Positions 19,837-55,615 of a stretch of DNA of 64,000 bases are shown one piece after another. The stretch comes from a virus (Duplodnaviria > Caudoviricetes). The stretch lies in the IMG/VR virus record IMGVR_UViG_3300020046_005360; one strand, given 5' to 3'. The translations under genes and the position numbers were made by a program. The first letter of the stretch is position 1; the number at the start of each line of letters is the position of its first letter. The notes below the pieces were generated by a model, which searched no databases, was not told where the DNA came from, and was given only the letters and a program-made list of their open reading frames with translations.

Positions 19837-20193
19837 TTATATTTTTCTTAGATATTTCGGGTCAATTCTAGTATTACTTCCTTCATCACTTTCAAAAGCT
19901 CCATCATAATATATTCCTTCTTCCCCTTTATCTATATATAAAGAAGCAGCATCTGGTTCCAATTCTAATATATTATCGTACCCGAGTTCATCTAACTCAT
20001 ATTTAGGAACCGCACTACTACTAAATTCATTGTATATATCTCTATCTTGATAATCACCTTTATCTCCACTAAAATGATATACGTCTGTTAATATAACACA
20101 ACGATCCCCATCTTTTACAGGTGATGGATTGTGAACTTTTATTTCAGTAAGTATTCCAGCTAATTCTTGTAATCTTTGTATTTCGTTACGCAT
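19837..20193 (-). CDS. putative capsid-targeted internal protein (RLQELAGI-TE-IKVHNP leader)
   Basis: Leader shared with 26865, 44671, 46137; acidic cargo. Confidence 0.6.
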   Translation of the reverse strand: MRNEIQRLQELAGILTEIKVHNPSPVKDGDRCVILTDVYHFSGDKGDYQDRDIYNEFSSSAVPKYELDELGYDNILELEPDAASLYIDKGEEGIYYDGAFESDEGSNTRIDPKYLRKI

Positions 20194-20202
20194 CTCCTCC
20201 CA

Positions 20203-20649
20203 TTATATTGTGATTATTTTATGAATCTTTGTTGACATTTTTTTCAATACACCATCTTGTACTAATAAAATAGAGTTTTTGTAATCACCCCAATTGATTT
20301 CATACTGAGTATCAATTTTTCCACCATTTAATTCCTGAATTAATGTATTTAAAGAATTAATGCTATATAATACGTTATGTTCTTTCTTACGGTGAAGTAA
20401 AATAGTGTTAGGAATTACTTTATCATTAATATTGAATTGATCAATATTATAAGTAGCTATTAAATTTTCTTTACCTTCAACCTGAAGTATGAATATCTTA
20501 CTATGTAATATAGTATATCTTTTAGTAATTTCTTGAATTGTATTTTCTAAGTCTTCTTCGTTGAAGAACGTAACAAATAATTTACCCATATCGTGTTTAC
20601 GATTAAAATCTAGTTCATCTATAAATACGTCGTTTTTTTGCTCTTTCAT
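20203..20649 (-). CDS. conserved phage protein
   Basis: KLFVTF, TILLHRKKE..LYSIN. Confidence 0.6.
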   Translation of the reverse strand: MKEQKNDVFIDELDFNRKHDMGKLFVTFFNEEDLENTIQEITKRYTILHSKIFILQVEGKENLIATYNIDQFNINDKVIPNTILLHRKKEHNVLYSINSLNTLIQELNGGKIDTQYEINWGDYKNSILLVQDGVLKKMSTKIHKIITI

Positions 20650-20661
20650 AATCTTAATTTA

Positions 20662-21376
20662 TTATATTAATTTGTTTTTAAATTTCCATTTATATCCACC
20701 AGATGTTTTAAGTTTACCTTTACAGCATTTCAATATTGTAATTATATTAAAATTAGGATTCTCTTTATAAGCATGAGTAGCACTGTTCCACTCTTTAATA
20801 AACTTATTTTCTAAACTATATTGAATTATAGGTTTTGAATGACCATTAGGAGTGTGTTTATAATTAGATTCTAATGGATATTCTTTATATCTCCAAATAT
20901 AACCATAAGCAGTTTTTAATTTTCCTTTACAACATCCTGTTATATCACTACCTTTAGAATTATTTATTTTAAAAGAAGCAGATCTAATACTTTTCCATTC
21001 TTTTATAAAATTACCTTCTAAATCATATTGAAATATTGATTTTATTCCCTTACCTAATTTATTATTACTTATTTTATCTTTTGTTTCTTTAGAAGCAAAA
21101 TCCATCCCATTTCCACCATTATTTTTATTTTGTATATTGAATCCTAATTGTCTAAAATATTCAATCCAAAAACATTCTAAAGGTTTCCAATCCTTACTAT
21201 CAAGAGAGTTAACTTCATCTATATAATCGTAAATAATTTGTTTACCAAATTTACATTTATGTCTATTTTTACGACAATTTTTTGTTTTTCCTATATAGAC
21301 TTTGTTGGGGTCTCCATAGCAATTAGTAACTAGGTAAATTTTTGTAATTTGGGAAGGTTTTGATATATTTATCATC
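20662..21376 (-). CDS. GIY-YIG homing endonuclease with NUMOD1 repeats
   Basis: KIYLVTN..YIGKT; QYDLEGNFIKEW repeats; start aligned with its paralogues (MINI). Confidence 0.85.
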
Positions 21377-21400
21377 GTAGTATGTTTTAATGTTTGCACG

Positions 21401-21445
21401 TATAAATATTACTTCCCTAAGCCTCTATTCAGAGGCTTTTATTTT
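21401..21445 (-). repeat. shared left end of GIY-YIG element, copy 2
   Basis: Near-identical to 7551-7595; supplies KIKASE* to the polymerase. Confidence 0.9.
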
Positions 21446-22771
21446 CCTCAAACTATTATAATTAATCCCATAACTTACAGAACACCTAAACTCACTTTTT
21501 TCTATTATCTTTTTAATATCTTTCAATAAATGTTTTCCATCTTCCTTTTTATAATCTAATAGAATTGCATCATAACTATAAAGTATTATTTTGCTTTTTT
21601 TATCCCTTAAATATACGAATAAATCTTTTAAAATCAAAATATTATAATAAGTTTCTGAACTCTGAATTATGTAATTCCAACATTTTTGTGGTGTTGGGTT
21701 TGGAATTTCAGACAATTTTATTTGTCTTCCCCCAACTAGTTCTACAAACCCTTGTTCTTGTATCCGTTTCCATAATTCTTTGATATGGTTTTCTAACTTA
21801 TTCCAAAATGGAACATGTTTGTATTGGGAAAATACACCCCCATTCATTTGTTTGAATGAAAGTTGTTTACTTTCTTTATATTCTTCTTCAGATAATTCTT
21901 CTTTTCCAAAATATGATTTTCCAAATTCTGTATGTATATCACCTTGAGGTAAATCAAAACCAATTATTTTAGCAGAGAGGAAAAGATGATATGAATTCAT
22001 ATCAAACTCAAATAAATAATCTTCACTAGGTATTATAAATTCTCGAGTTCCATCGTTCTTTTTTAATGCACCGAAATTAACTCCATTAAATGAATTAGAC
22101 GGACGAGAGGTAAAATTATATAAATTATATTGGGTAAAAATTTTATTATCTTTTATAGACAATTGTGGGTGTTTTATTGAATAATGTTGCTCAAAACAAT
22201 TATTATCAAGCGACATCCCTTCATTTTCAACACGGTACATGACTTCTATATAATCCGTGTTATAATACGTTGATTTGAATTGATTACCAATATATTTCTT
22301 AATAAAATTGTATATTAAATCTTGCTCCTCATAATGTTTAGTTACAGGAATATAAGAATTTAAATTTGGATTAGTTTTAAAAGACCCTTCAATATAATTC
22401 GCAACTATTGATTTATAATCAGGTATTTCTAAATTGTTTATATTACTTTCAAGGTGAAGTAAATTTATATCTATAATTTTAGAATCTAAAAATTCTTCTC
22501 CCAAAAAATATATTGATTTCTTTTTATCTAATATATAAATATTTGGATGTTTTAATATGAATTCTTTAACTAAACCTAATTCAATTCCTATTCCATCGTT
22601 ATGATTGATTGGGAAAATATAACCCTTATGACCTTCAACTTTATAATAAATTAATGAAATTTCAGTTAATTTAGGATGATAGTTATGATTTAGTGGAATT
22701 ATAGATATAAAACATTGTTTATTATAAGATAATTTTTCTAATTGTTCTTTTTCTTCTATTAACCAATACAT
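21425..22771 (-). CDS. short family A DNA polymerase
   Basis: TSRPSN, motif A FDMNSYH, motif B K..SF...NGG, NYIIQS, motif C YDAIL. Confidence 0.8.
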   Translation of the reverse strand: MYWLIEEKEQLEKLSYNKQCFISIIPLNHNYHPKLTEISLIYYKVEGHKGYIFPINHNDGIGIELGLVKEFILKHPNIYILDKKKSIYFLGEEFLDSKIIDINLLHLESNINNLEIPDYKSIVANYIEGSFKTNPNLNSYIPVTKHYEEQDLIYNFIKKYIGNQFKSTYYNTDYIEVMYRVENEGMSLDNNCFEQHYSIKHPQLSIKDNKIFTQYNLYNFTSRPSNSFNGVNFGALKKNDGTREFIIPSEDYLFEFDMNSYHLFLSAKIIGFDLPQGDIHTEFGKSYFGKEELSEEEYKESKQLSFKQMNGGVFSQYKHVPFWNKLENHIKELWKRIQEQGFVELVGGRQIKLSEIPNPTPQKCWNYIIQSSETYYNILILKDLFVYLRDKKSKIILYSYDAILLDYKKEDGKHLLKDIKKIIEKSEFRCSVSYGINYNSLRKIKASE

Positions 22772-22810
22772 AACTTTTTATTTACTTAAATATACGAATA
22801 TATTTTGATT

Positions 22811-22835
22811 AAAAAAGACCTTCATTGAAGGTCTT
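22811..22835 (-). terminator. intrinsic terminator
   Basis: AAGACCTTC-AAT-GAAGGTCTT followed by a U tract. Confidence 0.75.
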
Positions 22836-22839
22836 AATA

Positions 22840-22971
22840 TTATCCTATATAATATTCGTAATGATATCTATATTTTTCTTTATTTTCAGTTTTAACTAAA
22901 AATGGGATATTATTCCAAGATGCATATAATAACACATACAATAAATAAGTTTTAAGAATTTGATTTTCCAT
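22840..22971 (-). CDS. 43-aa orphan protein in a promoter-ORF-terminator cassette
   Basis: MENQILKTYLLYVLLYASWNNIPF...; own promoter and terminator. Confidence 0.45.
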   Translation of the reverse strand: MENQILKTYLLYVLLYASWNNIPFLVKTENKEKYRYHYEYYIG

Positions 22972-22987
22972 ACTTTTAAATTTTAAG

Positions 22988-23018
22988 TAAATATACGAAT
23001 ATATTTTGAAACTCCAAA
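22988..23018 (-). promoter_or_regulatory. Bacteroidetes sigma70-type promoter
   Basis: TTTG-N19-TATATTTA; 22-bp core repeated at 22787-22808 upstream of the polymerase. Confidence 0.65.
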
Positions 23019-23633
23019 TTAAGGTTTAGAAAATTGTTCTAGATTAGTTAGATATTGTTTTATTCCCGAAAATGATTTTTCTTTAATATCTAATATTCGT
23101 TGGTTGGTTCCTTTTACTGTTTCTTGAAATTTATGAGTTGTTTTATCTTTACTTAATGATTCTGATATCCTCCACAACAATGATATCGGCTTCCACAATG
23201 GGTAATTGTAAATTCCTCCTAATGATGATAAATCTTCGTATGTTAACTTATCTATTTCTATTATTTGGAATTGTCTTATTGTTCTTTGTTTTGCAAAGTA
23301 TCTTGTAATTTTGTTGTTACTATAATCAGCTTTTGTTGGTGAGGGATAAAATTGTGTTGGTTCTTTAAATTCTAATATATTAACACCTCCTTTATTTAAC
23401 GAATTAAATATTAACGAATCTCTACTTACTATTAATTTTGATGGAATGGAATTATTTTCTGTTATTCTAATTAAAGGAGATACTAAAACGTCTTGAGGAT
23501 TTTTTCCTGTGAATTGTTTTCCATCATAAGTTATAAAGTAATCTCCTACATAATCTTTTCCATCTTTAGTAGTGAATTCTCCTAAATTTGCTTTCAGATT
23601 AGTAATAACTCTAGATTTTGGAAAATACGGCAT
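23019..23633 (-). CDS. conserved virion/baseplate-region protein
   Basis: End of the baseplate operon; YPSPT..DY..RYF. Confidence 0.5.
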   Translation of the reverse strand: MPYFPKSRVITNLKANLGEFTTKDGKDYVGDYFITYDGKQFTGKNPQDVLVSPLIRITENNSIPSKLIVSRDSLIFNSLNKGGVNILEFKEPTQFYPSPTKADYSNNKITRYFAKQRTIRQFQIIEIDKLTYEDLSSLGGIYNYPLWKPISLLWRISESLSKDKTTHKFQETVKGTNQRILDIKEKSFSGIKQYLTNLEQFSKP

Positions 23634-23638
23634 AAAAG

Positions 23639-26600
23639 TTAATTAAAGGGATTATAATATGTAGGCATAAATATAGGAGTTTTACCACTATATTCTATTC
23701 TAGTTTTAATTAGGGCGTTTGCTATAGTTTTAATATCAACTTTAGCAAAATTTGGATTACCTCCAGTACCACCATAGTTTGCTATTTGTCCTACTCCTGT
23801 AATTACATTACCTACTAATTCTCCACCAGATTTAGTTACTACAGGCATTGAAGCCCATTCATATCCTATATTATTTATTGCATTTGCTAAGTCTATAGAT
23901 GATCCTTTATTGATTCCTTTAATATAATTTCCTACAATATATCTGAATTCAAGTAGCATATGATCTCCCATTTTCTCTTGATTTTGTGGAGTGTATCTGT
24001 CGTTATCTTTAAATTTTAGTGCTACTTTTAAAATATTCATAGTACTAGGAATAATTTGAAATCTTCCAGAAGCAAATACCCTTCTTCTATCACTTTCACT
24101 TGATATATTTTGTAAGGATTTAATGTTTTGAAATGACATACCACTAACATTGGTTGAAGATCTCATACCTTTTCCTCCAGTATTTGCAACTCCATAATTA
24201 TTTCCACTCTCATAATTTCCTATTATATTCTTTAATTTAGTTAATGATTTATCAGTTTGTACTACATTAGAAGGTACGGTTAATATATTAATAAATGGGT
24301 TTGATAAATTTGGTATATTTGAATTAAATGAAATATTCTGAGATTGGTTATAGCTAGTATATGTCTTGATATCTTCTTTATCAAATCTTATACTAAGAGT
24401 TTGTCCTGTTATTTTTGTAGTCCATTTATTATTATCAAAAGTTTGATCTATTCCGTGTATTATGAAGGCTATTTTAGGTAATTTATCTTTAGTTTTATAT
24501 GATGATGGTAGTAAGTTTGTTGGTATAGTAAAAGCTGAATTTGGTATTATTCCAGAAATACCATCCATTGTTATATTAAAATCTAAAGGAATTATAACAG
24601 ACGCTTTATTAATTGAATCTTTGGCTATTCTATATTCTGATAGTAATCCCCTATATGTGTTTATGGAGGGGTCTATAGATGATATGTTTATATCAAAGTT
24701 ACTTCCTCCTGAACCCATTATACTTTCTAAATGTTGAATTAATGTTTTTAAATTATCTTCTGATATAGCAGGGTCTGGGGTTGTTGGAGTAGAGGGAGAG
24801 AAATTTGATGTTGTTTTCTCTGCTGATATTCTGTCTATTAAACCTCTAGATAAATTAGATATAGCGAATGCATCATCTCCTAAAGCACTTGGATTTGCTT
24901 GAGCGGCTATTGTTACCATACTAGCCATATTAGGACCTATTTTACTTTTAAAATTATAATTATATACTATACTTTTATTACCTAATATAGGGATTTCGGT
25001 ATATTGTGTTGAGTCTTCTAATTCTTTTTGAAGAGATAATTTATTATCATCTACTAACCTAACACATTTATTAGAATCATCTACAACCACTCTAAATTCA
25101 TTAAATCCCCCCAAAGCTTTACTAATACCATCTAGTAAAGAATTTAAAAATTCAGAAAAATTAACATCTCCCTTACCATCTTTATCTCTTTGATTTCTTA
25201 ATATATCTGTGATATAATTAATATTAACTAATATACACATCATACGAGCTCTAACTTCCTTTTCTTCTGGGGTTACATTAAGATAATTATTTACAAAACT
25301 ATCAGATTTTATTTCTTTTTTATATTTTATTTCTCCTTCTTCATATGTGCTAGAATACATAGAACCTCCAGAAATATTAGAAGGAGTGTATTCTTTTTCA
25401 ACAACGACACCATTAATATCATTAAATACTCTGTCTATCATTATCCCTAAACCAAAGGGATCATCCATATTGCTTTGATTTCGTGGTATAATACAAACTC
25501 TAGGATCTAGGGACATTTGTCCTTTAAAAGTGGCACAGTAATTTAATTGATCATTAAAATCTATGTAAATATATGGTTTTATATTATCTCCACTTTTATT
25601 ATATATCATTCCAGTAGCAGTTATTAATGCTAAAAGATGACCTAATGTTATATATATTTGTTTTTCATCATTTCCATTACCTTCATTATCTGTTATGTTA
25701 TATGAAACTCCTACTGATGTAAATAGAGTGTTGGATATGTTTTGTATTTGAACTTTTTCTCCACCATTATTTTTATTTAATTCGGATATTAAAGAGTAGT
25801 GATTTCCTTTTATAGCATTTTCGTCTCCAACGATATTTCCTTTATCATTAAAACTTAAAAATTTATATGGAGTATTATTATATATCTTATTTAATACTTT
25901 TCTATAATACGGACTATTAACTCCTAAAACAGTAACTCCAGAATCTCTAGATGGTGTATTATTTACTTGTTGATATATAGAAAATAGTGCTTTATTTAAT
26001 ACAGATAAATTTTTATCTGCAATTTGAGATGTTATATTTTTTTTATCTTCTTCATCTCCCGTATTTTGAGGTTTAGATAGAAAATTGGTATTTTTATTTA
26101 CAGCCTGATTTATTTTTAATGAATCTAATATATCTCCAGCCCCAACTAATTTTATATCACACAGATATGAACCATCATCTTGTATCTCCCAACCAAAATT
26201 GGAAGTAGTTCCGACCATTGCATCATAATTTCCAGAATGGTCTATTCTTTTCTTTTGAATTGCTTTTACTAGTTGTTCTTTATTCGAGTAACTAAATACA
26301 TCTAGGGGTTTTGGATTGGATAGGTTTGAATTTTCATCCAAATAGACAGTATGACCCCATTCTAAAACTAATGAAAACCCTAATTTCATATATAAGGCAT
26401 CCATTAATTCTAATTGCTTTATATCATAACAAATAAATTTTATAGTAGCATATTGTAAAGTACCTAACTTTCCCGCAGAACTCAAATCAATAGATGTTAT
26501 ACCAGGCATAGGTTTAAAACCTAATGGTTTAGAAGGAAGCATACTATAAGAACCGTTTGGTTCTACTCCAAACCTATTAGTAATTTTACCATTATCATTT

Positions 26601-26860: not shown

Positions 26861-26864
26861 AACA

Positions 26865-27140
26865 TTATTTTATATTAAACCATTTCATATCTATTCCAGA
26901 TATGTTATTATGGGGAGTTTCTAAGTATTTTTCATAGTTTTTATACTTATTACTAACCACATAAATGCGATCATCTTGGATAGCGACATCTCTATCTAAT
27001 AATTTACCACTTTTATCATAAATTCTACCTTTTCCTGTTGGGGTTTTTTTAAGAATAAAAGGAAGGGTTGGATTATTCACTTTTATTTCAGTAATAATAC
27101 CAGCTAATTGTTGAAGACGTTCTATTTCGTTATATTTCAT
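26865..27140 (-). CDS. putative capsid-targeted internal protein (RLQQLAGI-TE-IKVNNP leader)
   Basis: Shared leader; inserted between baseplate genes. Confidence 0.6.
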   Translation of the reverse strand: MKYNEIERLQQLAGIITEIKVNNPTLPFILKKTPTGKGRIYDKSGKLLDRDVAIQDDRIYVVSNKYKNYEKYLETPHNNISGIDMKWFNIK

Positions 27141-27432
27141 TTGTTTTTTGGAAAGTATTTATTATAGAAGTTGAATCTCTTGGTATTCTAAGTTGCATTC
27201 CTACTGGAGGGTAAAATGAATCACATTCTAAATCGTTTACCATTGCCACAGCCCACCATAAAGATTCATCTCCCCAGAAATCATACGCAATAAGATCTAA
27301 TCTATCATTATATGAAGTTATAATATACGTATCATCTTCGTTAATGCCAATTTCTGGATAATAAGTTTGTGAATAAAGTTGTTTTCCTTCATCATTTGTA
27401 TAGGTAGGTATTGTTGTATAACGTGATGACAT
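27130..27432 (-). CDS. LysM-like baseplate wedge protein (gp53-like)
   Basis: DRLDLIAYDFWGD..LWWAVA..N..G.QLRIP. Confidence 0.8.
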   Translation of the reverse strand: MSSRYTTIPTYTNDEGKQLYSQTYYPEIGINEDDTYIITSYNDRLDLIAYDFWGDESLWWAVAMVNDLECDSFYPPVGMQLRIPRDSTSIINTFQKTNEI

Positions 27433-27470
27433 GTTTTATAGTTTTGTATTTGAATATATTAAAAGCAATT

Positions 27471-29540: not shown

Positions 29541-29825
29541 TTAATCTTCAATCATACTCCAATCCAGAATATCATCATTAATTTTCCATATATAAAATGG
29601 AATAAATGGATTTTTTGTTTGATTAAAGGGAGTTTTATTAAAATCAATTAGGTTATAATGTCCAGGATATCCCGATTTCCAATCTTTCCCTATTGTTTGT
29701 ATGAGTCTAAGGACCTCATTTTTATTATTAATTACAGTAGGTGTATTATAGCTACCTATATTTAAAGGGCCTGCATTTACTCTTATTTCACTTAATAAGA
29801 AATTTCTATGTTTTGATATATCCAT
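29541..29825 (-). CDS. putative internal protein (MDISKHRNFLLSE-IRVNAGP leader)
   Basis: Leader resembles that of 62946..63623; IKVNNP variant; own late-type promoter at 29836. Confidence 0.5.
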   Translation of the reverse strand: MDISKHRNFLLSEIRVNAGPLNIGSYNTPTVINNKNEVLRLIQTIGKDWKSGYPGHYNLIDFNKTPFNQTKNPFIPFYIWKINDDILDWSMIED

Positions 29826-43796: not shown

Positions 43797-44678
43797 TTAT
43801 TTTATAGACTCTTTAATTACTATTTTAGTGAAATTAAAAGATTTTCCTACAGGGGAAGCATTATTTACATTTATTGTATTAGGAATTATATAACCTTTAA
43901 CTGTAAGAGTCATTTCTGATTTAGAAGCTCTATCTCCCCCACTTTCTACTGATATAGGTGTTGGGTATGAATCTATACTTGCTCTAAATTGGAATCTTTC
44001 TTTATCTCCCCAATATGAATCAGAAGCAAATTCTATAGCTTCTATAAGTTTATTCATATGTTCAACATAATCTGTGTATATAATAAGTTTATATCTTATT
44101 GTGATATAATCTGGTATAATTCCTACTTTATATTCAACACTTTTCTTTTGGTTTTGCAGAACAGAAAAGTTATCATATGAGTTTCTTTGACTATAACCCT
44201 GTTTAAAATATTGAACGTTGTTTACTTTATTACCATCTAATTTATTTCCCAACGTTCTATCTTTATCAAAACTTTCACGTTTAAGTATTATTAGGGGTAT
44301 TTGAGCTTTGCCGTTTTTATCGCGATAAAAGCCGTCTTTTTGTATTGACTTCCATCTTTCAGGGGAACCATATATAACAGGTACTCCGCGCGTACTCCCG
44401 TTGATTTCAACAGTGGGTCTTATATAATTTTCTATATAATATATTATAGCAGAATCATGATCTTCAAGAGATATTTGAATATTATTTGTAGTATCTCCTT
44501 TCAAAGATATTTCATTCGCCCTAACAAAATCAGGTTGACCAGGATTAGTATACTTTAATTCAGGATTTGAATTATCGTAAGGCTGTAGTTCTTGTTCAGG
44601 AATTTGATACGGTTCAGGAAGAGCTTTCAAGAACTTATCTCTATTTATGGGAGTTGGTTTATCTCTATTTTTAGCCAT
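43797..44678 (-). CDS. tail terminator/sheath stabiliser (gp15-like)
   Basis: VPVIYGSPERW, PLI..R, PDY; follows the neck genes. Confidence 0.7.
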   Translation of the reverse strand: MAKNRDKPTPINRDKFLKALPEPYQIPEQELQPYDNSNPELKYTNPGQPDFVRANEISLKGDTTNNIQISLEDHDSAIIYYIENYIRPTVEINGSTRGVPVIYGSPERWKSIQKDGFYRDKNGKAQIPLIILKRESFDKDRTLGNKLDGNKVNNVQYFKQGYSQRNSYDNFSVLQNQKKSVEYKVGIIPDYITIRYKLIIYTDYVEHMNKLIEAIEFASDSYWGDKERFQFRASIDSYPTPISVESGGDRASKSEMTLTVKGYIIPNTINVNNASPVGKSFNFTKIVIKESIK

Positions 44679-45636
44679 TATTAATTATTTTAATAATATC
44701 ATCGGAATATAATTCTTCATATTCGTATTTATCTCCGGGACTATATATCTCTATTCTTAATTCCCCTTCTTGTGGATTTTTATCTATTTCTATTACTTCT
44801 CCCGTTTTTTCTCTTAATCCAGTTCCCTCATCAAAAATAAATTTATATTTTTTACCTATTTCTAAATCATTTATATTAACTAAATTTGGATTATTTACTT
44901 TAATTTCGCTAAAAGTAGAGTTTTGGTCTGCTACAGTATATTCTTGTAGTGTTAAATCATATCCTGCACGTAAAGCTTCAGATTGAGCTTGTTTAAAATT
45001 TTGTGGCAGCTCTCCTCCAAAGAAATCTAAGATATGCATATAATCATTAAATTTTTTTAATTGAGGTTGGTTGACTTTGATTTCATTAAGTATACCAACT
45101 AAATTTTCTTTTAATATTCTTAAATCTTCTTTTACTACAGTACGTGAAAATTTATTTCTTATTGATTTTAAATCTTTTACTAATTGGATTAGTTTAGGAC
45201 GTGAATGGAAATCTTTAAGTTGGACTTTTTCAAATTTACTTATTAAGTCAGTTAAATCTTTATGGATAGTAGAATCGTCTACTTCTTTTTTAACACTCCA
45301 TGTTACTGATTGTGTTTCAGGGTCTATATCTGTTACAGTTGTTCTTCTACCACCTGTTTCAGATGATTGACCAATGTTAAAATCGGAAACGTCTTCATTC
45401 AAATCATCATATTCTTTCCCTGTTCTTTGTTTAAATAATTCACGGGCGTATTCACTTACTTCAGATTCATTTTCTACCTCTTCATCCTCAAAATCGTTAC
45501 CTCCTGAAAATTCACCAACTTCATCTAAAGCTTGTCCCCAGCATTCATCAAATATTTTTTCATAATTTAATGGGTTGTTTACTTTTATTTCTGTAATTAT
45601 ACCAGCTAGTTGCTGCAGTCTTTTTATTTCGTTCAT
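44671..45636 (-). CDS. putative capsid-targeted polyprotein with three EIKVNxP modules
   Basis: RLQQLAGI leader; ITEIKVNNP, LNEIKVNQP, FSEIKVNNP. Confidence 0.6.
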   Translation of the reverse strand: MNEIKRLQQLAGIITEIKVNNPLNYEKIFDECWGQALDEVGEFSGGNDFEDEEVENESEVSEYARELFKQRTGKEYDDLNEDVSDFNIGQSSETGGRRTTVTDIDPETQSVTWSVKKEVDDSTIHKDLTDLISKFEKVQLKDFHSRPKLIQLVKDLKSIRNKFSRTVVKEDLRILKENLVGILNEIKVNQPQLKKFNDYMHILDFFGGELPQNFKQAQSEALRAGYDLTLQEYTVADQNSTFSEIKVNNPNLVNINDLEIGKKYKFIFDEGTGLREKTGEVIEIDKNPQEGELRIEIYSPGDKYEYEELYSDDIIKIINNG

Positions 45637-46136: not shown

Positions 46137-46427
46137 CTATGTATTTTTAGAATATTCTTCTAATTCGTTATATATAGTTTTTAAAATTTGAGGGTCTAAA
46201 TCAAATATTACCCCCTTATAGCCATCCTCATAGTCTTCCCAATTAAATCCTAGTGGGATATTATCATCAAGTATATCTCTTGCTGCTACATCATAATGAT
46301 CTTCCCCTTCATTAACATATAATTTATTATATAAATCCCATACTTTTTGAGGAGTAATATTTGGATTATTTACTTTAATTTCAGTAATGATACCAGCTAG
46401 TTGTTGTAATCGTTTTATTTCGTTCAT
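46137..46427 (-). CDS. putative capsid-targeted internal protein (RLQQLAGI-TE-IKVNNP leader)
   Basis: First 22 aa identical to 44671..45636; acidic cargo. Confidence 0.6.
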   Translation of the reverse strand: MNEIKRLQQLAGIITEIKVNNPNITPQKVWDLYNKLYVNEGEDHYDVAARDILDDNIPLGFNWEDYEDGYKGVIFDLDPQILKTIYNELEEYSKNT

Positions 46428-46429
46428 AT

Positions 46430-47611: not shown

Positions 47612-47612
47612 A

Positions 47613-48269
47613 TTATATTATATTTCTTTTTATTTCTCTGTTATACTTACTACATAAAGGTTGAAGGTTAGTATAATGACTTAATTTAATTAATTCTTCC
47701 TCTGTTTTAGCACTACTTATTGGGATTATATGATCTAGATCCCAAGTTTTATTGAATTCTAAAATTCCATCTTTTGGATTACCATAATTTTCTAATTTCA
47801 TCCAAGGTTCGAATTTAGATTCTATATAATCTTTAAAAATAACCCATTCACAACCTAATATTTGATAGGTTCTAGTTTTTTTCGAATATCCCATATTACG
47901 AAAAGACTCATTAATTCTACAAGCAATTCTATTTTTTAATTTAAATAGGGGATCATTATTAGCTCTATTTCTAAAATATTCTCTATCATACTCTTTCTTT
48001 TGGGGTTTTTGGAAAATCCTAATCTCTTTAAGTTCTTCAGAATGTTCTTTATTATATTGATTAGAATATTCTTTTATAGGAACCTCATTAATTTTATTAT
48101 ATTCTTTTCTATTTTCCCATATTTTTTCTTTATTATCTTCTTTATATTGTTTAGCACAAACTTTACATCTACCCGATAATCTATCTTTTTTAGATTTATC
48201 AGAATAAAAATTACTTAATTCTTTATCCTGTTTACAAATAACACATTGTTTCATATAAATAAATATCAT
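47613..48269 (-). CDS. HNH homing endonuclease
   Basis: CVIC..CKVC; WDLDHIIPIS..HYTNLQPL. Confidence 0.85.
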   Translation of the reverse strand: MIFIYMKQCVICKQDKELSNFYSDKSKKDRLSGRCKVCAKQYKEDNKEKIWENRKEYNKINEVPIKEYSNQYNKEHSEELKEIRIFQKPQKKEYDREYFRNRANNDPLFKLKNRIACRINESFRNMGYSKKTRTYQILGCEWVIFKDYIESKFEPWMKLENYGNPKDGILEFNKTWDLDHIIPISSAKTEEELIKLSHYTNLQPLCSKYNREIKRNII

Positions 48270-48409
48270 TAATCGAATCTTGATGCACAGAATTTAGTTA
48301 CTTTTACAGAATCTGCTATAAATTGTGGATCGTTGTCGTAAAATCCGAAAGGGGTTGAGGAACCGGAAGTAAAAACCGGATTACCCATATATATTACACT
48401 ATTGGCCAT
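48269..48409 (-). pseudogene. orphan 5' end (46 codons) of the neck protein gene
   Basis: MANSVIYMGNPVFTSGSSTPFGFYDNDPQFIADSVKVTKFCASRFD* vs MANSLIWTGNPIFTSGSSTPFGFYDNDPQFVSDAVKVANFCASRLG. Confidence 0.9.
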
Positions 48410-48468
48410 GTTTTATTTTCGTATAAATATTGAAAAGTAAAGGCACCTAGCGGTGCCTTATTTAATCT

Positions 48469-49119
48469 TTATTTTCCATATATATAATCTAATATATCTC
48501 CTACTATACCACTTCTATGGTTTTCTTTAAGTTTAATATGTTCTATACCTTTAATATGTTTAGATAATTCTATTGCGAAGTCTAAACCTGTAACTCCTTC
48601 ATTCGTATCTCTTTGAGATGAATCTCCATTTATTATTATTTTCCCTGATACCCCCAGGCGAGTTAAAATAGCTTCCATTTCAGCTTTAGTCAAGTTTTGA
48701 GCTTCTTCCACAATTAAAATATCATCAACTGTTTTACCTCGAATGAATTGTATTGGGAGGGCTTGTATCTTTCCTGCTTTAACAAATTCATCTATTTTAA
48801 GTCTGTCAGTACATTTATATAAATTTTCAATTAAAGCTTCCATATATGGATTGAATTTATCTTTTAAATCTCCAGGAAGAAAACCTAAACTTTTTCCAAC
48901 TTCAATTGCACTTCTAGATACAAGTATTTTGTCGATCTGTTTTGTGTTTAGAAAATCTAGTGCTGTAATAGATCCAACTAAAGATTTTCCAGATCCTGCT
49001 CTACCTGTAATTATAACTATTTGATTTTCTAAAATTAATCTTTTTGCTTCTTTCTGTTCTTCATTTAATTGAATGTTGTACTTAATTTCACTTTTACGAG
49101 GGCGATTAGGTTCTTTCAT
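48469..49119 (-). CDS. phoH: PhoH-family ATPase
   Basis: GRAGSGKS, LGFLPG, FIRG, EEAQN, TRLG, GDSSQ, HRS. Confidence 0.92.
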   Translation of the reverse strand: MKEPNRPRKSEIKYNIQLNEEQKEAKRLILENQIVIITGRAGSGKSLVGSITALDFLNTKQIDKILVSRSAIEVGKSLGFLPGDLKDKFNPYMEALIENLYKCTDRLKIDEFVKAGKIQALPIQFIRGKTVDDILIVEEAQNLTKAEMEAILTRLGVSGKIIINGDSSQRDTNEGVTGLDFAIELSKHIKGIEHIKLKENHRSGIVGDILDYIYGK

Positions 49120-49179
49120 GTAATTATTTTTAGTTAGACATTTGTCTTATATAAATATTAACGTACAAAAAGAATATTG

Positions 49180-49731
49180 TTAATCCAAATAAGTACCTGA
49201 TTTTTCTCTATTATCTTGCTTAGTAAGTGGTTGGGTGTTTTCGAAATGGAAACATAGATACATTTCTTGTTCATCAAGTAAGTTGAATTTGCATATAGGT
49301 TTGATGTGGTCTATTTCCCAGTAGGTACCATAGTTGTCCCAGGACATTTCCGAAGTGAATTTGGATTCGAGGTAGAGAGTGTAGTCACTGATGTTACATC
49401 CCAAATATTGTTCTGTACTTCTGTCCTTACCGTCTTTTAATCCGTTGTATATTCTTACTCTAATAGATTCTTTAAGTCTTACTAGTGGATCTTTACGACG
49501 TTCTCTAGCTCTTTCTGTTAATTTTTGAGTGCGAATTGCTTTCTTTTCAGGTGATAAATTAGCTAGTCTGTCTTTATGATAATTCCCATTATATTTGTTT
49601 TTATTTTGAGTCTTTTGACAAATTTTACAGGGAAAAGTATGACCATTTTTATGTGATGGATGTTTGGATTTATAATACCCATCTAATGAATAGTCGTTCT
49701 TACATTTAGTGCATGTTATTAATTCCATTTT
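49180..49731 (-). CDS. HNH homing endonuclease (likely start MELITC)
   Basis: CTKC..CKIC; WEIDHIKP..FHFENTQPL..N.EK. Confidence 0.8.
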   Translation of the reverse strand, partial: KMELITCTKCKNDYSLDGYYKSKHPSHKNGHTFPCKICQKTQNKNKYNGNYHKDRLANLSPEKKAIRTQKLTERARERRKDPLVRLKESIRVRIYNGLKDGKDRSTEQYLGCNISDYTLYLESKFTSEMSWDNYGTYWEIDHIKPICKFNLLDEQEMYLCFHFENTQPLTKQDNREKSGTYLD

Positions 49732-49745
49732 TATTGGTAATATAC

Positions 49746-49773
49746 AAAAAGAGGCTTGGATATCCAAGCCTCT
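49746..49773 (-). terminator. terminator after the major capsid gene, overlapping a sigma70-like promoter
   Basis: AGAGGCTTGGA-TA-TCCAAGCCTCT plus U tract; CTTG-N20-TATATT, same spacing as upstream of 19720. Confidence 0.7.
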
Positions 49774-49795
49774 AATTTTTATTCTATTTTATCTC

Positions 49796-51436
49796 TTAGA
49801 TTGAGTTCAAGTCTGCGACCAGAATTTTACCATAGAACTCAGGACGAACCATTTTCTTAGCGTATCTTGTCATAATACCTTTCCTAGGTGTAAATGTTTC
49901 AGGATCGTATACTAATGGAGTAGTCATTACTGGAATATATGGTGCATATACAGCTCCAGTTTCCAAGAATTGATTACCTTTGAATCCCATTAATATCGTA
50001 TTCTCAGTCATATATGGGTTTTTGTAAACTTTATAACGAGAATTAATAGCTCCTACTTTTTGTACACCGAATGCGTAAGATGATTTTTCAACACTACCAT
50101 CTGTATCTGCTGCAAATCCGGGGATTGATTCAAGTACAGTAGCAACTGTTGGAGATACTACCATGAAGTTAGCACCACCTCTTAAAGTTTTCTGATGGAT
50201 TGCATTAGAAACTTTTTGCATTTTAATACCTAGTGTTTGGAACCAAGACATTTTAGTGTAATATAAACCTGCGTTATTTACATTTGTAAATCCACTTCCA
50301 GTATAATCTTGACCTACTTTAGCTGACCAATATTCTGTTGTTGGAGCGTTTTGGATTAACATATCCAAGATTTCCATATCAATCTCTAGTGAGATGTATT
50401 CTGACATTAAACCAGTAACCTCAGCCTCAGCATCGATTGATTGGAATGCATTTAAATCTTGAGAGAACTCTGGAGTCCAGCTTGCTTTTAATTTTTTAGT
50501 TTTAGCAGCAATTGTATCAGATTTCATTTGGATATTGAATTCTGGGATAACGATATCTGTTGCAGAAGCAGCATTAGGAATTGAGAATGTACCTGCTGTA
50601 CTATCTTCATAATCACCTCTGTTATTATCTTTAGTTTGTTTATTATATAAAACTGAAGCTGCTGTTAAAGTAACTGAACCAGTATAGTAGAAATCTACTG
50701 TACCTGCAGCTGTTAATCTTGTATAATTTTGTAATAAGTTTACTGGATTAACACCTGAACCTGATACTACAAACGCTCTTACTCCGTTTACATCAAATGA
50801 TGTTAATGAAGAAGTTGCTACTGAAACTTTATAGATTTGACCTGCAGCAATAGAAGCTGATACAGCTGAATCATAATTTACATCTGCTAATGTAAGTGAA
50901 GATGATGCTACAGTTCCTGAAAATACTCCAGAAGCTGATGCTATTGCGAATTGGTTAGTTGAGTAACCAAACTTACCTGCACCATATAAACCACCATCTG
51001 CGTCATTTGAGAAGATATTATTTTGGCTGTTTTTACCATATAATGAATCTCCTGCGTTAAATGGGGATTTTGTGTTACCATATTGGAAATCTAAGAAGAA
51101 GATTAAACCTGCTGGTAAAGACATTGGTTGAACAGAAACGAATTCTTTAGCGGCGATTTGACCAAATACTTTACGTACTAATGGTAATGCAACGGCTGCG
51201 TATTGTTCTCCATTACCTGCTGTGAATGTAGCTCCACCTTGGTTTGTTGTATTGCTCTCTCTTACTAATTGCTTAGCTTGATTTTCTAGCAACTGAGCCA
51301 TGTGTGCTTTTTCTGTGGTATTTTCGATACCTTCTAATAGACCTGATTTGGCCCATTTACCTGCTAATTTCATAGCTCCAGTTAATTGAGCTTGATATGG
51401 ATCTGCAGATTCTAATAATTGTTGTACTACTGACAT
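49796..51436 (-). CDS. major capsid protein (gp23-like)
   Basis: LLENQ, LVRK, VQPM..P.GLIF, KLKASWTPE..QDL, YAPYIP, F.P..GIMTRYA. Confidence 0.97.
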   Translation of the reverse strand: MSVVQQLLESADPYQAQLTGAMKLAGKWAKSGLLEGIENTTEKAHMAQLLENQAKQLVRESNTTNQGGATFTAGNGEQYAAVALPLVRKVFGQIAAKEFVSVQPMSLPAGLIFFLDFQYGNTKSPFNAGDSLYGKNSQNNIFSNDADGGLYGAGKFGYSTNQFAIASASGVFSGTVASSSLTLADVNYDSAVSASIAAGQIYKVSVATSSLTSFDVNGVRAFVVSGSGVNPVNLLQNYTRLTAAGTVDFYYTGSVTLTAASVLYNKQTKDNNRGDYEDSTAGTFSIPNAASATDIVIPEFNIQMKSDTIAAKTKKLKASWTPEFSQDLNAFQSIDAEAEVTGLMSEYISLEIDMEILDMLIQNAPTTEYWSAKVGQDYTGSGFTNVNNAGLYYTKMSWFQTLGIKMQKVSNAIHQKTLRGGANFMVVSPTVATVLESIPGFAADTDGSVEKSSYAFGVQKVGAINSRYKVYKNPYMTENTILMGFKGNQFLETGAVYAPYIPVMTTPLVYDPETFTPRKGIMTRYAKKMVRPEFYGKILVADLNSI

Positions 51437-51462
51437 AGGTTTTGTTTAATTATATTTTATTT

Positions 51463-52566
51463 TTATTTTACGATACCAGCTAATTGTTGCATTCTAAGTA
51501 CAAAATCACTTTCTTGTGTTGTTACTTGTTCGTTTAATGCTCTTGGAGAAGAACCCGCTGGTCTTGAAGCGCTTCCTCTGTTTTCTCTTAATTGAGTAGT
51601 TGGCGTTGTGATTAGAGATTCTTTTAATGTTAAGAAAATATTCTTAGTTTCATTAATATTTCTTCCTCTGTCTAATGCATTAACTACTTTTACTTTTTGA
51701 GATTCTGTTAAATTTTTAGCTTTAAATATTTTATTTACATATAAAAGTTTAGAATTTAACAAATTCATTTCATTAAGTGATTTTCTTTGTTCTGCTATCA
51801 CTTTTTTAGCCTCTTGGAGTTCAGTTGATTCTGCTCTTAATGCGGATCCGGCTGCTGATCCTCCTGCGGCTAATTCTGCTTTAATTTTAGCTAATACTTT
51901 AGGTCCGGCTTTTTTGATCATTGCAATGATATTATCTAATCCAGCGGCTGCTGTATTTGCAGGATCAATTGATCCACCACCCATTTCAGATAAAACTTCA
52001 TCTAAATTAATATCTTCTTCTTCACTTTCTTCTGACTCAGGTTCAAATTCTACTTCACCTTCATCTTCAAATTCTCCTTCAGGCTCTTCTTCACTTAATT
52101 CTAGTTGAACTTGACGAATAATATCTTTAAGTTCATCCACTGTAATTTCACCTACAACATCATCACCTTCAGCGTCTTCTTCTAATTCTAAACCTTCTGC
52201 TCTTAGTGCCGTACCTGCTGCTGCTCCTCCTGCTTCTAATTCTTTTTTAATTTTAGCTAAGATACCTGGAGTTTTTGCTGCTGCTCCTTTAATCATTGAG
52301 ATTAAATTATCCAATCCAGCTGCTGCTGCACCAGAAGGTTCTTGCATCGCTTCATCAACGGCTCCTTCTTGTCCTTCTAATTCGTTAAGTAATTCATCTA
52401 AAGATACTTCTGATTCTTCTTCCATTTCATTTAATTGGCTTGAAAGCATACTTTTAATTTGTGGGGCGAACGATTCAGCCATAGCTAATTTAGCATTACT
52501 AAATGCGGTTTCTCTAATTTCTTTTGCTTCTGCTACTGCGTCTGCAAAAAGTTTTGGTTTTGACAT
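51463..52566 (-). CDS. prohead core/scaffold protein (gp22-like)
   Basis: Acidic, many L-x-E sites, between protease and MCP; ends RMQQLAGIVK. Confidence 0.8.
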   Translation of the reverse strand: MSKPKLFADAVAEAKEIRETAFSNAKLAMAESFAPQIKSMLSSQLNEMEEESEVSLDELLNELEGQEGAVDEAMQEPSGAAAAGLDNLISMIKGAAAKTPGILAKIKKELEAGGAAAGTALRAEGLELEEDAEGDDVVGEITVDELKDIIRQVQLELSEEEPEGEFEDEGEVEFEPESEESEEEDINLDEVLSEMGGGSIDPANTAAAGLDNIIAMIKKAGPKVLAKIKAELAAGGSAAGSALRAESTELQEAKKVIAEQRKSLNEMNLLNSKLLYVNKIFKAKNLTESQKVKVVNALDRGRNINETKNIFLTLKESLITTPTTQLRENRGSASRPAGSSPRALNEQVTTQESDFVLRMQQLAGIVK

Positions 52567-52761
52567 TAAAATTTATTTTGATTTTTGATTACTTATTGAG
52601 AAAGTAATATAGGAAGTGTTTATTGAGGGAGATCATAATAAGGAATGATCTATCTTATAGTCATAAATATATAAAAAGAGTTCAAAAACAAAAGAAAGGA
52701 AAAAGAAACGCATCCCTTTTGAGGATGCGTCAATCTATAAATACTATTTATAGGGTGGTTA

Positions 52762-53382
52762 TTATCTTAAGCAGCACATTCCTGTCTGAGAGCAAACAAT
52801 TTCTGATATTATTTCGTTTAATTTATCGTATTTAGAATTAGTTTTTGGTATATAATTTTCATTAAGACCTAAAGGTTTAACGAATGCTCCTTGTGTTGAT
52901 GGTTCTGATACTATATCCCAACAAACTAAAGAAAGGTCGTCTTGAACTTCTACAGTACCTTCACCTAAACTTTGCACTGAACCCATAGCTCTAGATGATA
53001 TACCTATTTGCACTCCACCTTTTACTAATGCTTTTACTATATTACCTGAAGGGGTGTCTAATATTAAAAGCTTAGCTTTTACATCATCTCCATCCCACCA
53101 AACCTCTGTTATTCTGTGGCAAACGTTTTTTAAATTGACAACTTGACTATCAGGGTGATCTAATTCTCCTGTTGCTCTATTTTCAACAACGGGACCATTT
53201 TTATAGTTTTCAATTTCTCTTTCAAGTATATTTTTGGGGTAAATCCTTCCATTTTGATTTTTAGCATCAGCACGTTGAATAATACCTTCAAGAATTAAAT
53301 CACCACTATTATGTTTAATACTCTCATTAATAGATTTAGGGTCGAGTTTAAGTGGAAAGTGTTCTATTAATAATTGCTTCAT
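52762..53382 (-). CDS. prohead protease (gp21-like)
   Basis: NQNGRIYP, GELDHP, GISSRAMGS, DIVSEPS. Confidence 0.93.
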   Translation of the reverse strand: MKQLLIEHFPLKLDPKSINESIKHNSGDLILEGIIQRADAKNQNGRIYPKNILEREIENYKNGPVVENRATGELDHPDSQVVNLKNVCHRITEVWWDGDDVKAKLLILDTPSGNIVKALVKGGVQIGISSRAMGSVQSLGEGTVEVQDDLSLVCWDIVSEPSTQGAFVKPLGLNENYIPKTNSKYDKLNEIISEIVCSQTGMCCLR

Positions 53383-54620
53383 TATACTCTACTTTTAGTT
53401 AATTGAACGCCTTTAGTTCTAGCATTATTTATTATACCAGCAGCTTCATTATCATCTTTAGCATATTGAACATTACCCGCTTTATCTTTTACCACAACAG
53501 CTTCTTCCATACCATATTTACCACTTGTAATTTTATTTAATTCAGTAGCAATTTCATCTAAGACATCATCATCTTCTAAATCATGTTCAGTTAATCCCCA
53601 ATCTTCAACTATTTGTCCTACAATTTTTCTTTGTTGAGGAGTTAATTCATCTAAATCTAATTCAGGAGCTCTTTCACAATCAGAACATTCTTCTCCTTCT
53701 AAATCCTCTTTTAAACTATTCATTAGTTTATACATTTCAGGAACATCATCTTCCTCCCAAATTTCCATATCTATCATATAATCTACCAAATCATCCCAAC
53801 TATTTATAGATAAGACATCTTCATCTTCATTTTCTTGCGAAATTAAATTTTTAAAATTTTGAAACTTTAAAGGATTATTTACTTTTATTTCTTTTAATTT
53901 TTTATTTTGACTTATAAGTTGTTTTCCCCCTGCTTGTTGATTATTATTAAATGTAAATAATATATCTCCTTCATAACCATCTTCTATATTTTCTATTTTT
54001 ACATCATAAGGTTTTCCTAATCGTACTCCAAGTATTCTATCCCCAATTTGAACTTTAGAAGGATCAAAATCTGGTATATATTTATTTAATTTCCATATCT
54101 TGTTGGGGGTATTTACTTTTATTTCTTTTAATTTTTTTAATTGATTTGGAGCAGTAAAGTCTTTTTTTAATTCTTCTGGTCTAAGATTTTCTTTCTCTGT
54201 TTTTTTCTCAGCATCAGAATAACATTTTTTAGTGTAGTAGTAAGGGTCAGAAGTAAGATTTTTTAATACTTTACGTTGTGTTGAAACCATTTCTTCTTCT
54301 GTAGGCATGTTTTGACCAACAGCAAGTTGAGTTAATTCCAATTCATAGTTGATTCCTTTTCCATATTCGTATGGTGAAACTTGGTCAATCGTAAAAGATT
54401 CAATTTCTGGTAGTTTAGGATTTTTATCTGCTTTATATTTTGGGACTAAATCCTTATTTTCGGTAATAATAGATTTTGATTTTAGAATTTGAATGGTGTC
54501 TTTCAACGAGTTAAATTTAGTAATCATAGGAAGTCTAGGATCACGACGTACTTCGTAAAGGAATTTTTCTTCGCTTATAATACCCTGTACTAATTGATTA
54601 TATAGTGTTTGTGCTGTCAT
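53382..54620 (-). CDS. head-region protein containing two EIKVNxP modules
   Basis: KNL..DPYYY; LKEIKVNTP, LKEIKVNNP. Confidence 0.6.
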   Translation of the reverse strand: MTAQTLYNQLVQGIISEEKFLYEVRRDPRLPMITKFNSLKDTIQILKSKSIITENKDLVPKYKADKNPKLPEIESFTIDQVSPYEYGKGINYELELTQLAVGQNMPTEEEMVSTQRKVLKNLTSDPYYYTKKCYSDAEKKTEKENLRPEELKKDFTAPNQLKKLKEIKVNTPNKIWKLNKYIPDFDPSKVQIGDRILGVRLGKPYDVKIENIEDGYEGDILFTFNNNQQAGGKQLISQNKKLKEIKVNNPLKFQNFKNLISQENEDEDVLSINSWDDLVDYMIDMEIWEEDDVPEMYKLMNSLKEDLEGEECSDCERAPELDLDELTPQQRKIVGQIVEDWGLTEHDLEDDDVLDEIATELNKITSGKYGMEEAVVVKDKAGNVQYAKDDNEAAGIINNARTKGVQLTKSRV

Positions 54621-55615
54621 TTATTTTTGGTTTATTATTTTATTCAAATCTGAAATTAAATCTTTTTTATCTTGATTATCTAATTCTTCCCACCATTGTC
54701 CTTGGTCTGCAAAAGTAGGGTACCCATACATTTCGAGAGTATTATCAGTTTCTTTTTCACTTACTTTATCCCCATCATCATTAATTTACGTAAATCCTCA
54801 AGTTCTAAAGTGACTATATTAGGGTTATTTATTTTTATCTCGTTTATTTTAGAAATATTTGAAAATGCTTCTTTTAGTTTATTCTGAATTTTATATAATG
54901 AATCTTTAGTACGTTTTAGATATTCTATTTCCTGATCATTTTCCTGTAATTCACCTTTAATACGAGTAGTAAATTCAATAAGACGATTTACTTCATCTAA
55001 TTTTAATTGTATCTCTTTTATCGCGCGATGAAGGATTTCTCTTGGTTTAGGTTTAGAAGTAGATTTTTTAAATTGGGTGTAACGAGATTCTGATAGTGTA
55101 TTTTTTATTTGTAATGATTTGTTATTTTGTTGTAACCAATTTAATATCTTATTAACATCATTGGATTCGAATTCTGGTTCTGTTGTATAATCGTCTCCCG
55201 GTTTATTGAAATCGTAAATCTCAAATTCTCCATCAAATTGGTTTAAATCTTTATATCTTCTTATGACAATATTATCTTCTAAAAATATTTCACCTTGATC
55301 TTTTAGATTTAAAATAGCGTCTTTTAATTCTTGATTATTTGGATTATTAATTTTGATTTCTTCCAAATGTTCTCCTTTCCACAAATCTTTACTATTTAAT
55401 CTATCTTTAGGGTCAACTATTTTAAACTTCATAGTTTTAGTATACATGTTTGGTTTAGGAGATGATTCGAATCCTGTTGGTGAGTTTTTATCTTTTTTGG
55501 TTGGTTTACGGAATGCTTTTTTAGTTAAATACCCTCCTGCGTCACCTGATGTAGATGTCTCTAGTAATTCACGGCAGTAGGCCTTGATTGAGGATTTTAA
55601 AATTTTATTATCCAC
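54621..55615 (-). CDS. head-region protein with two EIKINNP modules; apparent 1-nt frameshift near 54786
   Basis: ORF stops at 54761, but the -1 frame continues INDDGDKVSEKE...NQK* to abut the next ATG. Confidence 0.6.

Follow-up and report, generated by a model that had tools for sequence, protein, structure and literature searches.

In bacteriophage T4, gp67, gp68 and the internal proteins are processed by the prohead protease gp21, and the internal proteins form a diverse, defence-countering set whose members have only a targeting sequence in common (PMC9026906; PMC3012670). This protease cuts after L/I-X-E, and few or no further cleavage determinants have been reported for gp21 and its giant-phage relatives (PMC9026906). 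The virus record IMGVR_UViG_3300020046_005360 of IMG/VR, analysed here over a stretch of 64,000 nucleotides (the window), encodes between positions 19837 and 55615 a series of small proteins and protein segments that lie behind one short motif (the tag) of the general form E-I-K-V-N-x-P. The arrangement suggests, with a probability of roughly 60%, a modular capsid-cargo system that resembles the capsid-targeting sequence (CTS) and internal proteins of T4 and is extended to polyproteins, the modules being freed when a prohead protease of the S77 family cuts after the Glu of each junction. Targeting, cleavage, release and ejection into the host would all proceed by analogy with T4. The source phage is, judging from its major capsid protein, a ‘Far-T4’ myovirus, because the nearest cultured relatives by this protein are Flavobacterium phage vB_FspM_immuto (53.5% identity; hereinafter, immuto), Microcystis phage Mel-JY01 and Rhodothermus phage RM378. 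With megablast, the head region had no match among cultured phages.

A six-frame scan of the window with the pattern E[IV][KR][VI]..P detects exactly 10 tag sites, every one on the minus strand; these are the ten positions listed in the initial annotation, and there are none besides. The variant S-E-I-R-V-N-A-G-P, which had been reported as well, is real and is located at 29766-29789. Across 2000 residue shuffles of the long open reading frames (ORFs) of the window, the mean number of matches is 0.11 and the maximum is 3, compared with the 10 observed, so that the motif clearly exceeds its frequency in shuffled sequences of the same composition. The residue two positions before the Glu, stated to be mostly Ile or Leu, is one of these at 10 of the 11 sites and Phe at the remaining one. 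The 11 sites are distributed over the following genes (aa, amino acids; a slash marks the predicted cut):

46137..46427, minus strand: 96-aa gene directly after a 393-aa neck-type gene; class-1 leader (16 aa), tag at 46362-46382, putative acidic cargo module
44671..45636, minus strand: 321-aa three-junction polyprotein; leader, tag at 45571-45591, module and conserved core, tag at 45064-45084, module, tag at 44887-44907, module
29541..29825, minus strand: 94-aa gene; class-2 leader ending F-L-L-S-E/, variant tag I-R-V-N-A-G-P (29766-29789)
26865..27140, minus strand: 91-aa gene between a baseplate wedge gene and a lysozyme-domain hub gene; class-1 leader, tag at 27069-27089, basic module
19837..20193, minus strand: 118-aa gene; class-1 leader, tag I-K-V-H-N-P (20125-20145), acidic module
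54761..55615, minus strand: 284-aa protein in the gp67 position; conserved core of about 80 aa, tag, module, coiled-coil, tag, 25-aa tail
55340..55360, minus strand: junction H-L-E-E/I-K-I-N-N-P of the 284-aa protein
54821..54841, minus strand: junction K-I-N-E/I-K-I-N-N-P of the 284-aa protein
53382..54620, minus strand: 412-aa protein in the gp68 position; in-frame insertion of about 150 aa that consists of two tagged modules
54105..54125, minus strand: junction K-L-K-E/I-K-V-N-T-P of the 412-aa protein, at the start of a 78-aa β-barrel module
53871..53891, minus strand: junction K-L-K-E/I-K-V-N-N-P of the 412-aa protein

The modules thus occur in the three settings originally described: stand-alone genes (the four genes with a leader and a single tag), a three-module polyprotein (44671-45636) and two head-cluster proteins, of 284 and 412 aa, whose genes are located in the portal-to-protease interval, the place of genes 67 and 68 in T4. 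The 11 segments behind the tags show no significant similarity to one another, in agreement with the initial annotation. Their size had been put at roughly 50–100 aa and is actually 25–173 aa; they had been described as mostly acidic, and seven of the 11 are net acidic. The figure of 11 cargo domains is an overcount, as at least three segments cannot be counted as free cargo: two belong to the conserved portion of their own protein, namely the C-terminal stretch in the 412-aa protein and the coiled-coil in the 284-aa protein, and a third, the last 25 aa of the 284-aa protein, is, from its sequence, probably an anchor, not cargo.

The extent of the conserved unit can be gleaned from related loci. 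When the seed is reduced to E[IV][KR][VI] and applied to 41 low-G+C related loci, 92 distinct instances are recovered, with Pro at P6' in 76 and Asn at P4' in 71; the residue directly before Pro is N in 46, K in 14, Q in 9 and S in 6 of these instances, and 11 of them have Arg in place of Lys. With the downstream half alone as seed ([IV][KR][VI]N.P; loci and database proteins combined), the search yields 262 distinct instances, 260 of which carry Glu at P1, and P3 is L, I, V, M or F in 248 of the 260 Glu-bearing instances, against backgrounds of 6% for Glu and 32% for the hydrophobic residues. The full unit is nine residues long, hydrophobic-x-E followed by I-K-V-N-x-P. Seeded in this manner, the junctions have the Glu at P1 and the Leu or Ile at P3 that characterize S77 substrates, and the proposed agreement with the T4 gp21 rule (hydrophobic P3, Glu P1) holds almost without exception, with an S77 protease encoded nearby, among the following head genes:

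52762..53382, minus strand: prohead protease of the T4 gp21 type (MEROPS S77), 206 aa; phrog_207 2e-57, Pfam Peptidase_S77 3e-33, PDB 5jbl (T4 gp21 structure) 1.3e-19
51463..52566, minus strand: acidic scaffold-like protein of 367 aa in the gp22 position, encoded between the protease and major capsid protein genes; numerous hydrophobic-x-E sites
51466..51531, minus strand: C-terminal anchor of the scaffold-like protein, L-N-E/ followed by 21 aa that end in R-M-Q-Q-L-A-G-I-V-K-stop
49796..51436, minus strand: major capsid protein (gp23 type); phrog_138 7e-68
56483..58396, minus strand: portal protein (gp20 type); phrog_213 1e-61
58421-61201, minus strand: large terminase with an intein

The catalytic His76 and Ser130 of the protease are invariant among 20 relatives, and the protein keeps His and Ser at both positions that are Ala in the crystallized 5jbl protein. 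Comparison with T4 gp23 reveals T4-like candidate sites, L-L-E/G and L-E/N-Q, in the N-terminal propeptide of the capsid protein. The similarity of the scaffold-like protein to T4 gp22 is weak (E 0.036).

The near-invariance of the Glu at P1 and the hydrophobic P3, present in 95% of the instances, is the rule of the encoded protease family, and it is this feature, together with the behavior of the modules, which change their order, become separate genes and move from one carrier to another, as neighbour-independent units should, that makes it doubtful that the nine-residue unit stays uncut. If it did, it would be a docking or linker motif, an exposed β-strand with alternating hydrophobic residues ended by Pro, which tethers the modules via a common phage or host partner. 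Such a role would account for the observation that I-K-V-N-x-P is more conserved than known gp21-type sites require (PMC9026906), for the near-identity of the tag across lineages whose structural proteins are only 31–56% identical, and for those proteins that start with M-N-E followed by the tag, without a leader; no protein that might act as this partner was identified. A Lys-Asn isopeptide ‘catcher’ tag was also considered and rejected given the replacement of Lys by Arg in 11 of the 92 instances.

Most of the tag-bearing proteins carry the tag near the N-terminus. Among 60 distinct tag-bearing ORFs in related loci, the first tag lies within 30 residues of the start in 40, and three classes of leader, each ending in hydrophobic-x-E, cover 31 of these 40: 15 with L-A-G-I (class 1), 12 with K-L-x-D-I-L (class 3) and 4 with F-L-L-x-E (class 2). 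The class-1 leader, of 16–18 aa, is common to four genes of the window and to three in the 15 kb next to it, all with unrelated cargos; the latter genes come from the JGI contig L124, which is 100% identical to the window over a 4807-bp overlap and reaches 15.4 kb beyond the window end. The core of this leader is the C-terminal peptide of the scaffold, R-M-Q-Q-L-A-G-I-V-K, the commonest leader being R-L-Q-Q-L-A-G-I. The scaffold anchor motif is present in about 30 relatives (G+C 29–53%) and in immuto, with a hydrophobic-x-E site usually 8–25 aa upstream. The anchor-bearing relatives end in R-(M/L/F/W)-x-x-L-A-(G/N)-(I/L), so that the conserved C-terminal peptide and the maturation-type site upstream of it occur together. 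An immuto gene annotated as ‘DNA polymerase phi-like protein’ (10725-11966) encodes a very acidic protein, lies between the protease and capsid genes and has the scaffold anchor motif at its end; from these features, it is almost certainly a mis-named scaffold protein.

The 160-kb genome of immuto contains no tag anywhere, and two of its small proteins start with R-M-Q-x-L-A-G-I-I-T-E/S near the N-terminus; the same tag-less leader is found in several metagenomic relatives, and the leader is therefore older and more widespread than the tag. The class-2 leader of the 94-aa gene with the variant tag is followed in relatives by the canonical tag. Two further genes of the window have leaders of this class or similar ones:

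62946..63623, minus strand: 225-aa gene, outside the 19837-55615 region, with a class-2 leader ending F-L-L-K-E/ and no tag
8518-9072, minus strand: 184-aa protein of the 2H phosphoesterase superfamily (Pfam 2_5_RNA_ligase2, 28.8 bits with a cut-off of 27) with a class-2-like 13-aa leader ending L-L-L-E/ and no tag

The 184-aa protein is, by its sequence, a candidate packaged enzyme; T4 Acb1 is a 2H enzyme as well. The C-terminus of the 284-aa protein, R-K-L-M-M-M-G-I-K (54764-54790, minus strand), resembles the scaffold anchor, and the anchor may be used at the C-termini of several proteins. A 792-aa protein encoded just past the window (L124:10277-12655) ends in R-L-M-H-R-A-G-L-L.

The leaders of classes 1 and 2 have no sequence relationship to the T4 CTS (M-K-T-Y-Q-E-F-I-A-E), and no homology with it was found. 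By inspection, the leaders contain no hydrophobic core, and a secretion signal was accordingly rejected. The class-1 leader begins with M-N-E-I-K and the tag with (T)-E-I-K, so that the leader is bracketed by an x-E-I-K repeat (45589-45636, 46380-46427). Some proteins of relatives, including polyproteins of 647–966 aa, have the tag directly after M-N-E, the structure that a deletion of the leader between the repeats would produce (P0023; L007, L027, L044). A complete class-1 leader with its own Met is found at residue 420 of a 516-aa protein (L124:7516-7629; ORF 6274-7824), which, from the sequence, suggests that a leader-tag-module gene has been fused in frame to the gene before it.

The modules might also be separated by a chemistry other than that of the S77 protease, namely Asn-driven self-cleavage at N-P, an Asn-specific peptidase, a metallopeptidase borne by a module, as in polyvalent proteins, or ribosomal skipping of the 2A kind; the combination of leader and tag loosely recalls the 2A peptide L-A-G-D-V-E-S-N-P-G-P. 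Taken together, these are very improbable. Although Asn at P4' and Pro at P6' show strong conservation (71 and 76 of 92 instances, respectively) and one relative's polyprotein, P0029, contains by eye an H-E-x-x-H module, most tag-bearing proteins lack a peptidase module, and the variable residue before the Pro led to the rejection of Asn-Pro self-cleavage. The 2A (StopGo) core D-(V/I)-E-x-N-P-G-P, with its skip between Gly and Pro, was not found: there is no Gly-Pro after the motif, the residues after the Pro vary and the spacing from L-A-G differs. Skipping of the 2A kind is not known to occur on bacterial ribosomes.

The predicted gain and loss of modules among orthologues of the 53382-54620 and 54761-55615 genes is indeed observed. 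The two-module insertion of about 150 aa in the 412-aa protein is present in the relative L016 and absent from the orthologues in L048 (345 aa) and immuto (361 aa). The protein in the gp67 position has 74 aa and no tag in immuto, 284 aa and two tags in the window, and 640 aa and about seven tags in L048. Within the family of the 321-aa polyprotein, a conserved core is joined to different leaders and modules, and the tags are the exact points at which relatives rearrange, lose or split off modules: one module is N-terminal in the window, C-terminal in P0018 and internal in a 1378-aa polyprotein, and in L016, the C-terminal module is a separate gene with its own leader. The 78-aa module family is represented by the insertion within the 412-aa protein, by an appendage of the gp67-position protein in L048 and by stand-alone genes with a class-1 leader. 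Overall, 291 tag-delimited modules from 189 proteins form 189 families, of which 41 have multiple members; slightly more than half of the latter (21) have members at internal junctions as well as directly after an N-terminal leader.

Modelled confidently with AlphaFold2 from six sequences (pLDDT 84.7, pTM 0.68), the 78-aa module shows a small β-barrel followed by a helix that runs into the next junction, with the tag residues in a low-confidence, unstructured N-terminal extension; this predicted disorder fits an exposed joint. Foldseek searches with the model returned only weak matches to Tudor/SH3-like β-barrels (best E 0.12), from which no function is drawn. The AlphaFold2 model of the 321-aa polyprotein had a mean pLDDT of 47.7 and was not used, and a look-up of its conserved core in the ESM Atlas gave no usable match.

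Borders that coincide with the tags exactly in every comparison are what would be expected if the tag were mainly a recombination joint, as proposed for the leader of the T-even internal-protein locus, with amino acids that have no function of their own. The two junctions of the 412-aa protein even have 28 identical base pairs in common, in A-rich coding sequence. The codons tell otherwise. Synonymous codons vary among the copies of the tag, as the initial annotation pointed out, which places the conservation at the protein level. At every motif position, the codon frequencies of 82 distinct instances, drawn from the window and from related contigs, equal genome-wide usage (GAA 78% versus 88% in the background; ATA and ATT 46% each versus 47% and 44%; AAT 79% versus 82%), and therefore, selection acts on the peptide. 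The same agreement with the background led to the rejection of a promoter, a homing site or another signal at the DNA level. The four class-1 leader copies likewise encode identical or nearly identical peptides with DNA that is only 73–87% identical, and the DNA upstream of their start codons has nothing in common. With synonymous positions varying freely at background usage while the amino acids stay fixed, a joint without peptide function is very unlikely; recombination at the tag is likely as a consequence of selection on the peptide, and the tag-coding DNA would then serve as the joint for module swapping.

The exact heptapeptide coding pattern is found in 46 IMG/VR stretches, about 27 of which are low-G+C contigs with structural proteins 31–90% identical to those of the window; the remaining matches are single ones in unrelated contigs. 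A profile made from 16 leader-plus-tag N-termini, when searched against 1.84 billion cluster representatives, matches 318 of them at E ≤ 0.001 and 55 at E ≤ 1e-10. Most of the matches are leader-tag-module proteins of 80–130 aa, and polyproteins of 1378 aa (10 tags) and 1810 aa (9 tags) are also found; the median module length is 92 aa. Pfam searches with the 64 larger matches identified Imm5 or Imm5-like domains in four (best 3.9e-14), DUF5661 in two, leucine-rich repeats in one and a weak nucleotidyltransferase in one. The first functional hints on the cargo come from the following polyproteins of relatives:

P0033, P0080, P0095 and P0029: polyproteins with Imm5 or Imm5-like, DUF5661, nucleotidyltransferase-like and H-E-x-x-H modules

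The Imm5-like modules are sequence-based hints at an anti-defence role of the cargo. Domains that are hallmarks of polyvalent proteins (MuF, Zn-metallopeptidase, ADP-ribosyltransferase and others) have no Pfam match in the tagged proteins of the window or in the 64 larger relatives. The initial annotation knew of no description of the tag, and a full-text search of a literature library for the tag and leader strings found no paper containing them; the Far-T4 paper has nothing relevant to either, and no proteomics for the source phage or its tag-bearing relatives was found in the literature.

Taken as a modular capsid-cargo system, the locus would operate in several steps. The modules would reach the prohead by any of three routes: behind a short amphipathic N-terminal leader, as passengers on the gp67- and gp68-position proteins, or in polyproteins. 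The commonest leader would mimic the C-terminal anchor of the scaffold and thereby load the protein into the prohead core. Every module border would be a hydrophobic-x-Glu / Ile-Lys-Val-Asn-x-Pro junction, at which the S77 prohead protease would cut behind the Glu at head maturation, so that leaders and carriers are removed and the freed modules begin with I-K-V-N-x-P.

Several observations weigh against this scheme. The most strongly conserved part of the unit, I-K-V-N-x-P, is left unexplained by release of cargo: known gp21-type sites lack downstream determinants, so the protease would not be expected to need this hexapeptide, and the candidate sites in the scaffold and capsid protein lack the tag. 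An exact I-K-V-N-N-P is found in the terminase intein (60104-60121, minus strand), preceded by D-Y and without the Glu; given a chance expectation of about 0.003 per window, estimated from composition, this copy is odd and lies outside the junction grammar. BLASTP comparisons of the 284- and 412-aa proteins with T4 gp67 and gp68 detected no similarity, so that these are positional analogues only. Searches of Pfam and PHROGs with the tagged proteins of the window yielded no family match, which leaves their cargo without a recognizable function.

The conserved hexapeptide may be an extended recognition strand for the protease on the primed side of the cut or a signal that acts after cleavage. 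A predicted complex of the protease (20-row alignment) with a 38-aa leader-plus-tag peptide scored 0.01 against a mark of 0.32, with no controls, and speaks neither for nor against binding. A post-cleavage signal can be developed, with low probability, into a two-step address code, in which the leader or carrier would load the protein and the cut would expose the I-K-V-N-x-P N-terminus as a signal, so that a whole clade would have in common a plug-and-play library of hundreds of injected effectors. The exposed signal could act in retention on the DNA or capsid wall, in ordered exit through the tail, or in protection or recognition in the host. With such a code, any module pasted behind the tag would become deliverable cargo, and some of the effectors would be of the immunity type.

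Should the cargo-release model be correct, the packaged and injected protein set of an abundant, uncultured aquatic clade of Far-T4 phages would be readable from sequence, as any segment behind hydrophobic-x-E/IKVNxP would be cargo, and hundreds of candidate host-takeover and anti-defence proteins would come into view. It would also imply a route of capsid loading not described for T4, with passengers carried on head-core proteins or polyproteins and released at a standard joint. The downstream residues point to an extended protease specificity or a new post-cleavage signal, and the tag is a possible natural design rule for packing foreign proteins into phage heads.

The genomic neighborhood is that of a T4-type late gene cluster, with terminase, portal, head, neck, sheath and baseplate genes, in a window with a G+C content of 28.7% and nearly all genes on the minus strand. 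Three genes of this cluster, encoding proteins of 280, 284 and 412 aa, belong to no known family. Two tagged genes adjoin structural genes, and all tagged genes lie on the same strand in the late structural cluster; one protein of the tag family is encoded on a contig of 175 283 bp. Genes of the homing endonuclease type (HNH/endonuclease VII-like; NUMOD-domain endonuclease) are dotted through the structural cluster at 19079-19720, 20662-21399, 47613-48269, 49180-49767 and 61201-62097.

Among described systems, the closest is that of T4, where the CTS joined to IPI, IPII, IPIII and Alt is likewise a short common leader on unrelated small proteins that ends in hydrophobic-x-Glu (PMC9026906; PMC3012670). 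Both systems have an S77 protease encoded beside the scaffold and capsid genes and a diverse, fast-changing set of cargos, and by eye, the class-3 leader (M-K-L-T-D-I-L-x-x-E) is similar in length and end to the T4 leader. Unlike in T4, the main leader copies the C-terminus of the scaffold, a six-residue tag follows the predicted cut site, and there are polyproteins as well as passengers in proteins of head-core position. Polyvalent proteins likewise combine many unrelated domains in one phage polypeptide, for which packaging, delivery together with the DNA and, in some cases, processing have been predicted (Iyer, Burroughs, Anand, de Souza, Aravind 2017, PMC5512222). The 1378- and 1810-aa polyproteins of relatives, with their Imm5-like, nucleotidyltransferase and DUF5661 modules, may be polyvalent-like: compared with the 2–15 conflict-type domains that define this class, they have 9–10 modules, and the 321-aa protein of the window has three modules without a known domain. 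They differ from polyvalent proteins in the uniform nine-residue unit at each border, which matches the rule of the head protease, and in the small size of the modules (median 92 aa).

The giant phages phiKZ, 201phi2-1 and SPN3US also possess large sets of head-internal proteins that are cut after Glu (S/A-x-E) by a gp21-related protease (PMC9026906, PMC10052503). Their sites have ‘extremely few other cleavage determinants’, and no common downstream tag or tag-delimited shuffling has been described for them. Farther afield, there is a general likeness to coat-binding peptides at scaffold C-termini that have a maturation cut nearby (the herpesvirus assemblin M-site, the P22 scaffold C-terminus) and to the cargo-loading peptides of encapsulins. 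The likeness consists in a conserved scaffold end, a protease-type site just upstream and a peptide reused to bring other proteins into an HK97-fold shell, the binding of L-A-G-I to the capsid protein or portal being putative. In potyvirus polyproteins processed by NIa-type proteases, a protease heptapeptide is repeated at each domain border, with the motif mainly upstream of the cut; in the tag system, the most conserved residues lie downstream, and the virus type and protease family are different. Three features would, from the sequences at hand, set this system apart from its T4 and polyvalent counterparts: a nine-residue joint conserved downstream of the predicted cut, the C-terminus of the scaffold put to use as a leader, and passengers carried within proteins that occupy head-core positions.

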